Shown here piece after piece: positions 26,982 to 31,425 of a stretch of DNA of 64,000 nucleotides. Below the pieces are notes generated by a model. It saw only the letters and a list, made by a program, of their open reading frames with translations, was not told where the DNA came from and did no database searches. A program made the position numbers and the translations under genes. The stretch comes from an uncultured bacterium (GTDB lineage Bacteria > Chloroflexota > UBA5177 > JANWHV01). The DNA is taken from NCBI GenBank assembly GCA_963827235.1, contig CAWHAE010000009.1, positions 960,001-1,024,000 of the forward strand. Reading direction: 5' to 3'. Position 1 is the stretch's first letter. Every line of letters begins with the position of its first letter.

Positions 26982-27950
26982 ATGCCTGGACCGCTTCCCC
27001 ACTACCAGCCCGTCTTCACCGACGAGCAGATTGCTGCGTGCTTGCGCCTTGTGCGCCAGCGCACGGCACCGCAAGCACAGGTGTACCGCGCCAAGTTGGC
27101 GCTGCTGCTGCACGCCCAGCCGGCCCTGGATAACCCGAGCGCCGGACGGCTGGTGGGCAAGCACGAGAACTGGGTGCGCTACTGGCGGCGCACCTGGGCC
27201 ATCGAGGGCTTTCGCCTGGCGGACAAGCCAGGCAGCGGGCGCAAGCCCCGGTTTTCCCCCTCTGGCCAGAGCCACGGTGACGGCGCTGGCCTGCGAGCTG
27301 CCGGCCCAGCGCGGTGAACCGCTCAGCCGCTACAGTATGGCCGAGATCGCCCGTCTGATTCGGGCGCACCCGGATGCGCCGCCGATGAGCCAGAGTACGA
27401 TCTGGCGCATTCTGGACCGCGATGCCCTCAAGCCCTGGCGCTACCGCAGTTGGATCTTCCCGCGCGACCCGCAGTTTGCGGCGAAGGCCGGGCGCGTCCT
27501 GGACCTGTACGCCGGCTTCTGGGAGGGCCAGCCGCTGGAGCCTGCAGACTGCATCCTCAGCGCAGACGAAAAGACGAGCATTCAGGCGCGTATCCGGCGT
27601 CATGCCAGTCTGCCGCCGTCGCCGCAGCAGGGCACGCAACCGGGCCGGCCCAGCTACGTCGAGCAGGAGTACCGGCGCGGTGGTGCTCTGGCCTACCTGG
27701 CGGCCTGGGACGTGCGGCGCGGGCACATCAGCGGGCGCTGCGAGGCCACCACCGGCAAAGCCCCCTTCGGCCGGCTGGTCGACCAGCTCATGCAGCAGGA
27801 ACCCTACCGCTCGGCGCCTCGCGTCTTCTGGGTCGTGGACAACGGCTCCAGCCATCGCGGTGCCCGGGCGCAGCGGGAACTGGCGGCCCGCTATCCCAAC
27901 CTGATCCTGGTCCATCTGCCTACCCACGCATCCTGGCTCAACCAAATCGA
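26982..27950 (+). CDS. IS630 transposase, 5' part (HTH orfA plus DDE orfB; +1 frame change at TTTTCCCCC 27252-27260), interrupted
   Basis: orfA MPGPLPHY..LADKPGSGRKPRFSP. orfB ALACELP..SADEKTSIQ..VVDNGSSH..HASWLNQIE. Confidence 0.92.
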
Positions 27951-28525
27951 ACCAAGACCAAGCCATTGCAGGGACGCTGCCTAGTGGTGATAAGCTACTG
28001 GGCTATACCATAGTCCAATATCCCGGTCATCCCCTCGCTGGCCGCAGCGTCCCCGTGGTACGGCGCTACGGTCGCCGCGAGCGAGGGCAGTGGGTGATCG
28101 AACTGCCGGATGGCAGCCGGCAATACCTTCCCGCCTCCTGGTGTTCGCCGCTCGTTGCGGCAGAAGGAGCGCTTCCTGTGCCCGCATCGTCCCCGGATGA
28201 ATCGTCCGATGGTGGTGCCCGTCCGCTGCTGAGCGTGACCGCGCTGCGTGACCTGGCTGCCCTGGTGCGTCGCCTGCAGGAGGCGGCAGCCCCGCGTGGA
28301 GAGGAGCAGGGCGATGCAGGGGACGCAGGAGTGGCCGTGCCCGGAAGCGAACGAGCGGACGGGCGTGGTGAGCAGCGGGAGCGGGGTGGTGGCGTTGCCG
28401 AACTGGGAGAGCTTCCAGGAGGCGGACCGGCGCCAGCTGGTGCAGACCATCCTGCACGTGGCGCGTCGGCAGGTGGAGCAAGCGGGCCCGGCAGACCGAC
28501 TCCGCGGAAAGTGAGGCAGCCGTGA
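27950..28525 (+). CDS. Element ORF1 (DUF5372 / Y4bD-like small protein); frame open to the left junction, predicted start supplied by the right end
   Basis: No stop between 27950 and 28525. The family-like segment IVQYPGHPLAGRSVPVVRR..ELPDGSRQYLPASWC begins upstream of the first GTG (28055). The stop overlaps the recombinase start (GTGA). The family assignment is from memory. Confidence 0.65.
   Translation, partial: NQDQAIAGTLPSGDKLLGYTIVQYPGHPLAGRSVPVVRRYGRRERGQWVIELPDGSRQYLPASWCSPLVAAEGALPVPASSPDESSDGGARPLLSVTALRDLAALVRRLQEAAAPRGEEQGDAGDAGVAVPGSERADGRGEQRERGGGVAELGELPGGGPAPAGADHPARGASAGGASGPGRPTPRKVRQP
28248..28514 (+). CDS. Possible small overlapping element ORF2 (true start probably about 28366)
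   Basis: Amphipathic helical segment LPNWESFQEADRRQLVQTILHVARRQV, ending 7 nt before the recombinase. Confidence 0.4.
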   Translation: MTWLPWCVACRRRQPRVERSRAMQGTQEWPCPEANERTGVVSSGSGVVALPNWESFQEADRRQLVQTILHVARRQVEQAGPADRLRGK

Positions 28526-30783
28526 GCGCGAACACAGCGGCAGGCGCGGTGTGGGACCAGGTGGCGGCAGGTACGGCCGATCCCAAAGTCCGGGCCCAGC
28601 ACCTGGGCCGCCAGGCGCTGATCTACGTGCGCCAATCCAGTCCCAACCAGGTACAACGCCACCCCGAAAGCGCGCGCCGGCAATATGGGTTGGTCGAGCG
28701 AGCCGCCCAGTTGGGCTGGCCACGCGATCAGATTGTGGTCATCGATGAGGACCAGGGCAAGAGCGGCGCGGGCAGCGCCGCCAGCCAGGGTCGTGATGGC
28801 TTTGCCCGGCTGGCCGCTGCCGTCAGCCTGGGTGAGGTCGGCTTAGTGCTGGCGCTGGAGGTGGCCCGGCTGGCGCGCAATTCGGCGGAGTGGTATCGCT
28901 TGCTCGAACTCGCCGGCTACAGCGGCACCCTGATCGCCGACGAGGCGACCGTCTACGATCCTCGGCTCTTCAATGACCGCCTGCTCTTGGGCCTGCGGGG
29001 AACGATCAGCGAGGTGGAACTGCATTGCATCCAGGAGCGCCTCCACGGCGCCCGCATGAGCAAGGCACAGCGCGGAGACTTACCGATCCGCCTGCCTGCT
29101 GGCTACCTGGCGGACCACGCCGGCCGCGTCGAACTCGATCCCGACCAGGAAGTGCAAGGGGCGATACGGACGATCTTCGCCCAATTTGAGGGGCTGGGCA
29201 CCGTCACCGCCGTGCTGCACTTCTTCACCGCGCACGGGCTGCTGGTGCCCCGGCGCCGCTGGCACGCCGAGAGCGGGTCGCAGATCGTGTGGATGCGGCC
29301 CAGCTACCAGGCATTGCACACGGTGCTCACCAATCCCGTCTATGCCGGGGCCTACGTCTACGGGCAGCGCGGACCGGCCGCGGATCTGGGGGCGCCAAAG
29401 CGGCGCCACCGGTATGCCGCGGAGGAAGCGGCGGTGCTGCTGCGCGACCACCACCCCGCGTATATTAGCTGGGAACGCTTTCTCGCCACGCGGGCAACCC
29501 TGCAGGACAATGCCAGCCAGTTCCCCGCGAGCAGAGGCGCACCGCGGCGCGGGCATGGTCTCTTGCAAGGCCTCGTGGTCTGCGGCCGGTGTGGCTGCCG
29601 CATGCGGCTGCAGTACGGCGACACCAGCACTGCGTACGTCTGCATCACGCGGCATCAACGCTACGGGGAGCCGCTCTGCCAGAGCCTGACCATGGACCAC
29701 GTCGACCGCGCCGTCAGCGAGGCGTTCCTAGCGGTCATCGCGCCGGCACAGGTCGCGGCGGCCCTGGCGCTGGCGGAAGACGTGGAGCGCGACCGGGCTG
29801 CTGCCCAGCGCCAATGGGAGTTGCGGCTGGAGCGGGCTCGCTACGAGGCCGAACGGGCCTTCCGGCAGTACGACCTCTGCGAGCCGGAGAACCGGCTGGT
29901 GGCGCGGGAGCTGGAAGGGCGCTGGAATGGCACGCTGCGCGAGGTGAGTGCGCTCGAGGCACAGTACCGGCAGGAGCAGGACCGCAGCCTGGCGCCGCTC
30001 ACCCCCGCAGAACAGACCGCGATCTGGCAGCTCGTGGGCGACATGCGTGCCCTCTGGGCGGCAACGCAGACGACCATGGAGGATCGCAAGCGCCTGCTGC
30101 GCTGTCTCATCCGCGAGGTGGTGCTTCTGCGCGACGACCGGCCCAGAGCGACGGGTGGCCTGACGACCATCCGCATTGGCTGGTGCAGCGGCGCCTGGAG
30201 CACCCTGCAGGTGCACCGGCCCGGCAGTGGCGATGCCGCCAACACGCCGGAGGCCGTCCTGAGCCGGATTCGGGGGCTGGCGCAGGACCATGCCGACGAT
30301 CAAGTCGCCCGGATCCTGAATGCGGAAGGTCTGCAAACGCGGCAAGGTCTGCCCTGGACCTACCTGCGGGTGCAGCAGGTCCGCCTGCGCCACCGCATCC
30401 CGACCGCCTGTCCGATCGTACCGCGCGACGGCGGCCCTCGCGGCGATGGTCTGGTGCCGGCGGGTACCGTCGCCGCCCAACTGGGCGTGGCGCGATCGGT
30501 GGTGGCGGAGTGGTGCCGGTGCGGCTTTCTGCGCGCCGAGCAGAAGGCGAGACTGGATCCCCGCTGGATCCAGCTCACCGCGGAGGACCGGGCGCGTCTG
30601 GACGGGACGCTGGCCGCGCAGGGCTACGGCCAGTGGCGGATCCGTGACGCCCAGCAGGTGCTCGGGCTGAACGCCGAGGCGCTGTACGCGCAGGTGCGAG
30701 CAGGCCAGCTGGTGGCCTATCGCGCGCACGTCGGGGCGCACTGGGAGTGGCGGGTCGGTCCGGCCACGCCGCCTGAACCGTAA
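28522..30783 (+). CDS. Large serine recombinase (resolvase, recombinase, zinc ribbon, coiled coil and extra HTH domains)
   Basis: Catalytic IYVRQSS, IDEDQGKSG, EVARLARN, LTNPVYAGAYVYG, LLQGLVVCGRCG and EPENRLVARELE. Confidence 0.95.
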   Translation: MSANTAAGAVWDQVAAGTADPKVRAQHLGRQALIYVRQSSPNQVQRHPESARRQYGLVERAAQLGWPRDQIVVIDEDQGKSGAGSAASQGRDGFARLAAAVSLGEVGLVLALEVARLARNSAEWYRLLELAGYSGTLIADEATVYDPRLFNDRLLLGLRGTISEVELHCIQERLHGARMSKAQRGDLPIRLPAGYLADHAGRVELDPDQEVQGAIRTIFAQFEGLGTVTAVLHFFTAHGLLVPRRRWHAESGSQIVWMRPSYQALHTVLTNPVYAGAYVYGQRGPAADLGAPKRRHRYAAEEAAVLLRDHHPAYISWERFLATRATLQDNASQFPASRGAPRRGHGLLQGLVVCGRCGCRMRLQYGDTSTAYVCITRHQRYGEPLCQSLTMDHVDRAVSEAFLAVIAPAQVAAALALAEDVERDRAAAQRQWELRLERARYEAERAFRQYDLCEPENRLVARELEGRWNGTLREVSALEAQYRQEQDRSLAPLTPAEQTAIWQLVGDMRALWAATQTTMEDRKRLLRCLIREVVLLRDDRPRATGGLTTIRIGWCSGAWSTLQVHRPGSGDAANTPEAVLSRIRGLAQDHADDQVARILNAEGLQTRQGLPWTYLRVQQVRLRHRIPTACPIVPRDGGPRGDGLVPAGTVAAQLGVARSVVAEWCRCGFLRAEQKARLDPRWIQLTAEDRARLDGTLAAQGYGQWRIRDAQQVLGLNAEALYAQVRAGQLVAYRAHVGAHWEWRVGPATPPEP

Positions 30784-30806
30784 CGTGACGCATCAGGGAG
30801 ACCGCC

Positions 30807-31130: not shown

Positions 31131-31150
31131 ACGCCCAACGCAGCGGCTGA

Positions 31151-31174
31151 CGTGCCCGCTGATAGGCGGGCACG
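31151..31174. other. Perfect 9-bp stem-loop near the element right end
   Basis: CGTGCCCGC-TGATAG-GCGGGCACG, with no U-tract. Confidence 0.7.
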
Positions 31175-31211
31175 CCTCATCAAAGGAGATGCATTCGAAT
31201 GGGCTCACTGA

Positions 31212-31425
31212 GATCTACTTCTCTATCGTCCAACGCAAGGTGCTCAGCCCCAATGACTTCGCCGACCTGGCGGCGGTGGAGCAGCGCTTGCTCGCCTTCG
31301 AGGGCCTCTACAATCACACGGCGCAGCCCTTCGCCTGGAAGTTCACCCGGCCGGACCTCGAGCGGCGGCTGGCGCAACTGCGGCCAGTCCAGCAGCATGA
31401 ACCTGTCCTGGATCAGGCCGCCTAA
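31212..31425 (+). CDS. IS630 transposase, 3' part
   Basis: (E)IYFSIVQRKVLSPNDF..YNHTAQPFAWKFT, a typical IS630 C-terminus. Confidence 0.92.

Follow-up and report, generated by a model that had tools for sequence, protein, structure and literature searches.

A compact element encoding a large serine recombinase, inserted in an IS630-type transposase gene at the codon for the catalytic glutamate

The window analysed here, 64,000 nucleotides of the genome of an uncultured bacterium (positions 960001-1024000 of contig C9 in the source genome, G000), carries an IS630-type transposase gene of the DDE_3 family that is split by an inserted element encoding a large serine recombinase (LSR). The element measures 3,261 bp, occupies 27949-31211 when both copies of a GA dinucleotide at its ends are included, and splits the GAG codon of ...SWLNQI^E, where ^ marks the point of insertion; coordinates are window positions unless a contig is named. 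It contains three open reading frames (ORFs) in all, ORF1, the gene of the 753-aa LSR and ORF3. The features of the locus are listed below.

26894-26929, no strand: left terminal inverted repeat of the IS630-type host, 25 of 36 positions equal to the reverse complement of 31423-31458
26982-27317, + strand: N-terminal part of the IS630 transposase with the helix-turn-helix (HTH) domain, from the ORF list; weak HTH_23/HTH_32, below the Pfam cut-offs
27268-27948, + strand: DDE part of the IS630 transposase, ending ...LPTHASWLNQI; Pfam DDE_3, E 2e-11 to 8.5e-13
27949-27950, + strand: putative GA crossover core of attL, bases 1 and 2 of the Glu codon; from the two-copy junction alignment and 17 of 19 relatives
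27951-27997, + strand: left arm (putative right half of attP), ACCAAGACCAAGCC...; relatives keep GAA(C/G)CAAGACCA...
27998-28525, + strand: ORF1, a divergent DUF5372-family protein, its conserved region beginning LGYTIVQYPGHPLAGR; from alignment, hhalign and complex prediction
28522-30783, + strand: LSR, 753 aa, catalytic Ser39 in YVRQSS; Pfam Resolvase, Recombinase and Zn_ribbon_recom, weak C-terminal HTH_17
30807-31130, + strand: ORF3, 107 aa, optional cargo, without a Pfam or NCBIfam match
31131-31209, + strand: right arm (putative left half of attP), ending ...ATGGGCTCACT; the end is conserved in 10 relatives
31210-31211, + strand: putative GA crossover core of attR; from the two-copy junctions and the right ends of relatives
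31210-31425, + strand: C-terminal part of the IS630 transposase, (E)IYFSIVQRKVLSPNDF..., beginning (E)IYFSIVQRKVL; from translation
31423-31458, no strand: right terminal inverted repeat of the IS630-type host, pairing with 26894-26929 at 25 of 36 positions

The left junction reads ...TCC TGG CTC AAC CAA ATC GA^ACCAAGACC, with GA at 27949-27950, and the right junction ...GGGCTCACT GA^G ATC TAC TTC, with GA at 31210-31211. Since G27949 is the first position of a codon and GAG ATC TAC from 31210 stays in frame up to the stop at 31425, removal of the 3,261 bp restores ...SWLNQIEIYFSIVQRK... / ...SWLNQIEIYFSIV.... As read from the junction alignments, the ends of the element appear loosely symmetric, as attP half-sites. 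No phage structural or conjugation genes were found by Pfam and NCBIfam in its three ORFs, and a search of 26800-31600 with Rfam gave 0 matches at E up to 1, so that there is no intron-like RNA at the element.

A BLAST search with 26000-33000 against the whole genome located a second copy of the element at C12:1390112-1393376, corresponding to window 27947-31211, with one mismatch in 3,265 positions (window 29386). This copy is also bounded by GA on both sides, the likeness ending two bases beyond the left GA (a shared TC) and exactly at the right GA. The same 2-bp GA thus stands at both junctions of both genomic copies, the target duplication being no longer than GA, and the boundaries of the element and its GA core are independently confirmed. 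The junctions and the second copy also uphold the preliminary description of the locus, made from the window alone, according to which the insertion splits the GAG codon of SWLNQIE and duplicates only GA. The C12 copy interrupts an ORF encoding a P-loop ATPase (GSNGLGKTT; a weak AAA_23 match of 27.4 bits), whose frame runs on across the insert when one GA is kept; removal of the element restores an open frame in both places. Judged from the sequences, the element is recently mobile. As to the nature of the C12 target, the region may encode an SMC-type defence ATPase. The target lies at 4799-5112 and 8378-10153 of locus L008 (G000:C12:1385000-1399000), and the next ORF is weakly LmuB-like. It was not called as a defence system, PADLOC having given only weak P-loop matches of the LmuB, PtuA and GajA kind, the best of them (E 9.4e-7) in the next ORF.

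The choice of target is best seen in the relatives of the element. Metagenome contigs were scanned with the LSR, and among the matches listed there are 27 close relatives (L109-L135) with 59-84% identity, 19 of which, having at least 24 nt to the left of the element, formed the test set for left ends. In 17 of the 19 (15 distinct flanks, as L121 equals L122 and L126 equals L127) the left end directly follows ...(W/Y/D)(L/M/Y)(N/D)xx^GA in differing IS630/DDE_3 genes, and the elements begin GAA(C/G)CAAGACC..., whose GA opens the codon of the catalytic Glu. The preceding codons read ...HGSWLNLA, ...SGSWLNMA, ...HASWMNQI, ...HTSWLNQV, ...HCFWMNPV, ...YSPDYNPI, ...YSPDLNRK or ...YAPYLNLI; the flanks are strongly different at the DNA level, and the orientation is uniform, with the LSR on the transposase strand in all 17. 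DDE_3 was matched, at E up to 1e-3, by 13 of the 19 left-flank fragments, the others being pieces of 28-63 aa or L118. Right ends, recognised by motif, invariably close with ...CACTGA (10/10), and in the nine that have 24 nt of flank the base that follows is G (eight) or A (one), which completes the Glu codon as GAG or GAA; right flanks G-ATC..., G-TCG... and A-TCC... read E-I-W-L-S, E-S-I-Q-R-I-L, E-I-E-L-G-I-L and similar. A single element of 2,939 bp (99.76-99.86% identical) occurs in three flank contexts, L112, L113 and L114. The suggestion that the conserved catalytic motif of IS630 serves as attB is supported by the position of these 17 left ends, and the flanks of close LSR homologues, whose inspection had been proposed as a check, show W-L-N-x-x-E-type IS630 junctions in the same proportion; the location in IS630 is not incidental, and the element has the look of a parasite on other mobile genes.

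It is therefore very probable that the insert is a minimal integrative mobile element, the LSR of which recombines attP with an attB lying in the catalytic-Glu motif of IS630/DDE_3 genes, at GA. In this recombination of the element's attP with attB by the LSR, as read from sequence comparison, attB would be the DNA encoding (S/P)(W/x)LNxx-E of IS630/DDE_3 transposases. Crossover would occur at the non-palindromic GA with which the Glu codon begins, one GA being left at each junction, and such a core would fix the orientation. By analogy with LSR biochemistry, a circular intermediate of 3,261 bp carrying attP (right end-GA-left end) would meet attB. The insertion splits the transposase before its third catalytic residue, and precise excision by the LSR would restore the gene; excision would be the reverse reaction, probably with a partner protein. 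The DUF5372 protein would, on the complex model described below, be a bound partner of the LSR. When a good target is lacking, look-alike GA sites could be used, for example that in the C12 ATPase gene. The advantage to the element would lie in the catalytic-motif codon being the least mutable DNA in a dispensable, repeated and horizontally moving gene family. The insertion may also inactivate the transposase reversibly, and the element may hitch-hike on IS630.

Several side observations concern these relatives and sites. Among the near-identical elements of L112-L115 there are related left flanks with unrelated right flanks, and the reverse for L114/L115; the pattern suggests either that copies residing in different IS630 genes have undergone exchanges or that the contigs are chimeric. 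Sequences resembling a second left end, 105 nt past the right end in L109 and L120, were discarded as chance matches to IS630 coding sequence. Locus L015 (G007:C76:55068-59876) was rejected as a second case of insertion, its WLNQVE^IY being uninterrupted and its LSR a 5'-truncated pseudogene. There an IS630-like gene (668-1530, with a frameshift near 1375) lies directly upstream of the LSR pseudogene (1594-3306), which lacks its first ~88 residues and has two stops.

The interrupted gene itself can be recognised as an IS630 transposase on both sides of the insert. The part at 27268-27948 covers positions 21-122/124 of the 146 in the DDE_3 profile, and the C-terminal part aligns with the uninterrupted IS630-like gene of L015, ...WLNQVEIYLSIVEWK. 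Between the D of VVDNGSSH and the split Glu there are 36 residues (DD36E), which lies inside the range DD34E-DD37E given for IS630/Tc1 in an excerpt of PMC11544213, so that the spacing fits this group. With the uninterrupted IS630-like ORF of L015 as the query, a PDB sequence search returned 0 matches. Without the insert the IS630 is ~1.3 kb long. Its terminal inverted repeats were revealed, with 25 of 36 positions pairing, by a simple ungapped comparison, a stricter first scan having given nothing at its threshold; the dinucleotides flanking them are TA on the left and AA on the right, and a TA target duplication is typical of IS630/Tc1. The HTH and DDE parts are in different frames, the change lying near a TTTTCCCCC run at 27252-27260 (K-P-R-F-S-P, then L-A-R-A-T in the +1 frame); this could reflect a dead gene, a programmed frameshift or a homopolymer error of the assembly. 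It is also worth noting that the minus-strand ORFs 26477-26851 and 31428-31907 flank the IS630 and seem to encode two parts of one regulator, a C-terminal LuxR-type HTH and, upstream of it, a helical-repeat part. If so, the translations would describe a three-level nest, an LSR element in an IS630 in a regulator gene.

The protein encoded at 28522-30783 is, from its domain content, a member of the LSR family. It matches PF00239 (E 1.1e-14, residues 32-186), PF07508 (E 5.8e-16) and PF13408 (E 7e-10). R37, Q38 and S39 are invariant in LSR alignments of 7 and 18 rows; among the cysteines of the zinc ribbon, C354 and C374 are invariant and C357 and C386 at least 90% conserved.

ORF1 precedes the LSR gene directly, its stop overlapping the LSR start (GTGA). 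The start of ORF1 is uncertain, as the listed GTG is at 28055 and the conserved region begins upstream of it. In the close clade ~100 residues are conserved, (T/I)(M/I)V.YPGHPLVGR..VVRRY....W.IELPDGSRQY.P.SWC.PL ... SPLSL.ALRDLAALVR.L. The ORF1 of the window gave no direct Pfam match, DUF5372 (PF17342) included, at E up to 1, and no NCBIfam match; hhalign of the ORF1 clade profile against DUF5372-type ORFs gave a probability of 97.1% (E 7.5e-11). Equivalent ORFs upstream of more distant LSRs match PF17342 (E 1e-24 in L073 and 1e-18 in genome G063), and of the 167 loci with a located + strand LSR match, 125 have a DUF5372-like ORF upstream of the LSR. The LSR (18-row alignment) and ORF1 residues 1-100 (13 rows) were modelled as a complex. 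The model scored 0.62, and the best of three controls 0.00; of solved complexes 58 of 80 attain this mark, and of mismatched pairs 2 of 110, a calibration that is rough here since the alignments were author-built. At least 72% of contacts are shared between the runs, and the predicted local distance difference test (pLDDT) value of the partner is at least 62. In the model, helix 74-97 of ORF1 packs against LSR 490-532, LSR 553-560 and portions of the zinc-ribbon region, the predicted interface segments of the LSR being 353-360, 376-381, 405-418, 490-532 and 553-560. The prediction supports binding of ORF1 to the LSR, and ORF1 may act as a directionality or target-selection factor. A full-text literature search returned no paper that mentions DUF5372.

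The preliminary description had further taken the element to be minimal, with no phage or conjugation genes. This holds as far as Pfam and NCBIfam are concerned, but the element is not reduced to the LSR, as it contains the conserved DUF5372-type ORF1 and the optional ORF3. A long right arm (466-556 bp) holding ORF3 occurs in the window, L109 and L110 only; of the eight relatives whose contigs contain both the LSR end and the right end, the remaining six have 67-92 bp from the end of the LSR match to the element end. The minimal element is thus DUF5372 plus LSR. In the source genome, G000:C17:213761-214026 is 72.6% identical to the ORF3 stretch (window 30808-31073). One LSR clade (L039, L058, L063, L064, L076 and eight others), in which the DUF5372 gene is separated from the LSR by an extra + strand ORF that has HTH domains of transposase type (HTH_28/29/32 in L039), would represent a three-gene variant of the element.

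Some observations weigh against the proposed targeting of the IS630 Glu codon by the LSR. The sole other copy in the source genome is in a non-IS630 gene, that of the ATPase, which means that the specificity is strong and not absolute. In L118 TC takes the place of GA and the flank does not resemble IS630, and in L116 the left end (the first ~25 nt) is replaced and adjoins a complete ISAzo13-type gene. A position weight matrix (PWM) made from the half-sites of the relatives was scored on the 1,019,672 GA sites of the genome. In favour of the targeting, the left half makes the window site the best in the genome and places the C12 site in the top 0.07% (704 of 1,019,672); against it, the right half-site of C12 is unlike the consensus, at the 40th percentile, so that C12, with a high left half and an unremarkable right half, looks like a partial pseudo-site. 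The matrix mixes coding constraint with recombinase recognition, and these ranks are therefore modest evidence only. Two unoccupied sites, G000:C16:1180114 and C18:112255, score 18.7 and 13.7 bits with the left half; they lie in two homologous genes and encode SG(A/R)WLNR(T/L)^D-FEGWAQRG, the GA belonging to an Asp codon.

Further points of this kind concern the host and the partner gene. The frame change near 27252-27260 may mean that the host IS630 was already dead before the insertion, and ORF1 of the window (and of L109) has ATA where relatives have ATG. An empty copy of the IS630 was not found in the source genome, where a DNA search returned the window and a 47-nt piece and a protein search one partial fragment of 45%. 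By these searches the IS630 is single-copy there; hence there is no empty copy, and the many sites of a multi-copy insertion sequence (IS), which the preliminary description had envisaged along with a check for empty copies, are not provided by the source genome. Neither a circular junction nor an empty site was seen in read-derived metagenome contigs (sharing at most 0.20 of the sampled words of the stretch). Two contigs, from runs X1 and X3, match the window from precisely 27949 onward, and a high-depth contig of X3 covers 27823-27849 and 31210-31263 but not the element; as the X1-X4 contigs come from metagenomes and other organisms, they give only a weak hint.

Other explanations of the locus were considered. 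The element might be a low-specificity transposon of the TnpX/TndX type that needs only GA, its location in IS630 being a matter of survivorship because IS genes are harmless places. The copy in an unrelated ATPase gene speaks for this, as does the use of GA sites without obvious preference by TndX in B. subtilis, described in the part of PMC4430133 that was available. It is nevertheless improbable, given that 17 of 19 relatives occupy the identical codon in one orientation, in IS630 flanks differing in DNA, in face of the 1,019,672 GA sites that the genome offers. In addition, Pfam finds no DUF4368 in the LSR, a domain present in 63% of the multi-targeting, TndX-like LSR clade according to excerpts of Durrant et al. 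(PMC10083194). Slightly less probable still is a domesticated on/off switch of the IS630 transposase, comparable to the gene-interrupting elements excised by XisF or SprA and not a selfish parasite. The frame is precisely restored on removal, and the nearest named NCBIfam model to the LSR is the fdxN-element excision recombinase XisF, albeit with 73.5 bits, far below the cut-off of 375. Such a switch does not agree with the same element type in many unrelated IS630 genes across metagenomes, with near-identical copies in different flanks or with the jump into a non-IS gene, and a single-copy, frame-shifted IS offers no obvious benefit.

One could also regard the LSR genes as passenger cargo of a composite IS630-derived transposon, moving only with the IS, since the element lies between recognisable IS630 inverted repeats and composites of IS and LSR are seen twice in genome G001 and in G063. 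As the C12 copy has no IS630 flanks, with the shared sequence ending within two bases of GA, and among relatives the same element stands in different IS630 genes, this explanation is very unlikely.

Among known systems, the closest precedent is TndX of Tn5397. According to the part of PMC4430133 at hand, TndX has a central GA in its target, prefers DNA that codes for a conserved Fic domain and uses other GA sites if this is absent. The element described here resembles Tn5397 with TndX and Tn4451 with TnpX, in which the LSR alone integrates and excises, in its GA core, its conserved-motif target and its one off-target copy; TnpX also uses GA. The TndX and TnpX elements are of 6-21 kb and carry resistance or conjugation genes, whereas the present ones are of 2.9-3.3 kb without such cargo; unlike them, the latter target the catalytic codon of another mobile element and have a DUF5372 partner gene, with no DUF4368 found. 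With the serine integrases of phages (Bxb1, phiC31) the LSR shares the catalytic-recombinase-zinc ribbon order, the 2-bp non-palindromic core and the precise junctions, and the small partner, here predicted to bind the zinc-ribbon region and the following helices, is reminiscent of the recombination directionality factors of Bxb1 and phiC31. In contrast to these phages there are no phage genes and attB is a repeated mobile target, not one chromosomal locus; unlike the known families of directionality factors, the partner is DUF5372. In the XisF fdxN element, SprA/SPbeta and skin, too, a coding sequence is interrupted by an LSR element and regained when the element is removed, but the gene interrupted there is a host developmental gene and excision is programmed, while here it is a transposase gene.

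IS607 is likewise a small element moved by a serine recombinase. Its transposases are described in an excerpt of PMC4058570 as small, with the DNA-binding domain first and minimal target specificity; unlike them, the LSR has the catalytic domain first, followed by the recombinase and zinc-ribbon domains, and a strong target choice. A parallel of another kind is provided by inteins and homing introns, whose insertion sites are the sequences that are most conserved and least mutable in widespread gene families. Inteins and such introns are spliced out at the RNA or protein level so that the host gene works, whereas the present element disrupts its host at the DNA level. Serine integrases are usually seen as tools of phages and integrative conjugative elements aimed at host genes. 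Full-text literature searches returned no description of LSR elements targeting transposase or intron reverse transcriptase genes, although the supplementary target tables of Durrant et al. may bear on novelty. In the sections available, Khedkar et al. 2022 counted nested recombinase islands and did not resolve them (PMC8989519). For phage WO, the accessible text of PMC9203015 reports IS-flanked sr3WO prophages and no conserved integration site, and contains no codon-level transposase attB.

The LSR of the window belongs to a large family, with at least 586 relatives in genome contigs, confirmed by tblastn, and at least 469 in metagenome contigs. Those in genome contigs, of ~40% identity, come from many phyla and are often on contigs of 2.4-5 kb; 10 of the 101 genomes searched (G000 and 100 relatives) have an LSR match. 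Homing to mobile-element genes appears to generalise to this family. Where two copies define the boundaries of an element, the following split sites could be read.

G063 (three copies): two 70%-identical DDE_Tnp_1_4 (IS1380-type) genes, split at profile positions ~328-331 of 435, ...YCPRG^(D/E)xEN
L040, L047: group II intron reverse transcriptase, split at RVT_1 position 76-79 of 205
L030, L033: group II intron reverse transcriptase, split near the RVT_1 start
G001 (L024), L073, L074: IstA of IS21, split at the end of rve (101-102 of 102), the flank resuming (K)GK(V/I)ER
L042, L067, L092: IstB, split at query residue ~120, the AAA match beginning at 114 (Walker A)

A tblastn tally of 167 loci with a located LSR, for which flank sequences served as queries, found both halves of an interrupted gene flanking the LSR in 34 cases of reverse transcriptase, two of IstB, two of IS1380 and one of IS630. 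One side only was found at 51 loci and nothing at 77, many with short flanks; as the queries had been taken from flanks already seen, finding none does not equal absence of a mobile element. Left flanks are otherwise unexplained at 32 loci, and a Pfam scan of ten of these produced matches to mobile-element enzymes in six (IS110, a tyrosine integrase cut at 151 of 172, Y2_Tnp, rve_3, IstA-type Mu-transpos_C_2 and ISAzo13) and nothing in four. Genes of IS110, IS91 and rve_3 each flank single loci. In a FastTree phylogeny of 143 LSRs the target labels cluster by clade, with 36 changes against a mean of 72.5 after shuffling and 0 of 200 shuffles as low, a contrast inflated by long-branch rows and near-copies. 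The window falls in a clade of 20 rows with support 100 (16 IS630, three unknown and one abutted by ISAzo13), and this clade holds all the IS630-associated rows.

Duplications involving such elements were observed in two genomes. G001 carries twice an IS21 (IstA/IstB) with an LSR element inside IstA (L024 4192-9278 and L025 4178-9264); the repeat is of 5,087 bp with 99.9% identity, one copy is truncated in IstB, and the arrangement fits a composite copied as a unit, that is, hitch-hiking. In G063 two of the three LSR copies are in a duplicate of 4,526 bp (L026 9941-14466 and L027 5352-9877), which on either side includes portions of the split IS1380-type gene; the shared part lacks ~130 profile positions at the N-terminal end of this gene.

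The window element may thus be one clade of a superfamily of hyperparasitic mini-elements made of LSR and DUF5372, a broader proposal to which we incline with some reserve. Such elements, distributed over many phyla, would insert at clade-fixed sites in mobile-element enzymes, disable their hosts, possibly reversibly, and ride with them between genomes. The sites would be the Glu codon of IS630, KG^K(V/I)E of IS21 IstA, the Walker A of IstB, a position in IS1380-type transposases a few codons before the EN motif, and two sites in group II intron reverse transcriptases; the genes of IS110, IS91 and rve_3 would probably provide further ones. If true, there would be an LSR lineage specialised on mobile elements, for which the DNA of catalytic motifs is a repeated, conserved and dispensable landing pad. 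This would explain a class of broken transposase and intron reverse transcriptase genes that annotation pipelines call pseudogenes, and it gives DUF5372 a context and a testable partner role. The LSR systems concerned are compact (2.9-3.3 kb), their attP, attB and core can be read from many natural junctions, and the natural series of attB variants lends itself to the study of how LSR specificity evolves. The superfamily, if real, would add to the mobilome a trophic layer not described before, and would supply a ready panel of compact recombinases whose att sites are natural and defined.

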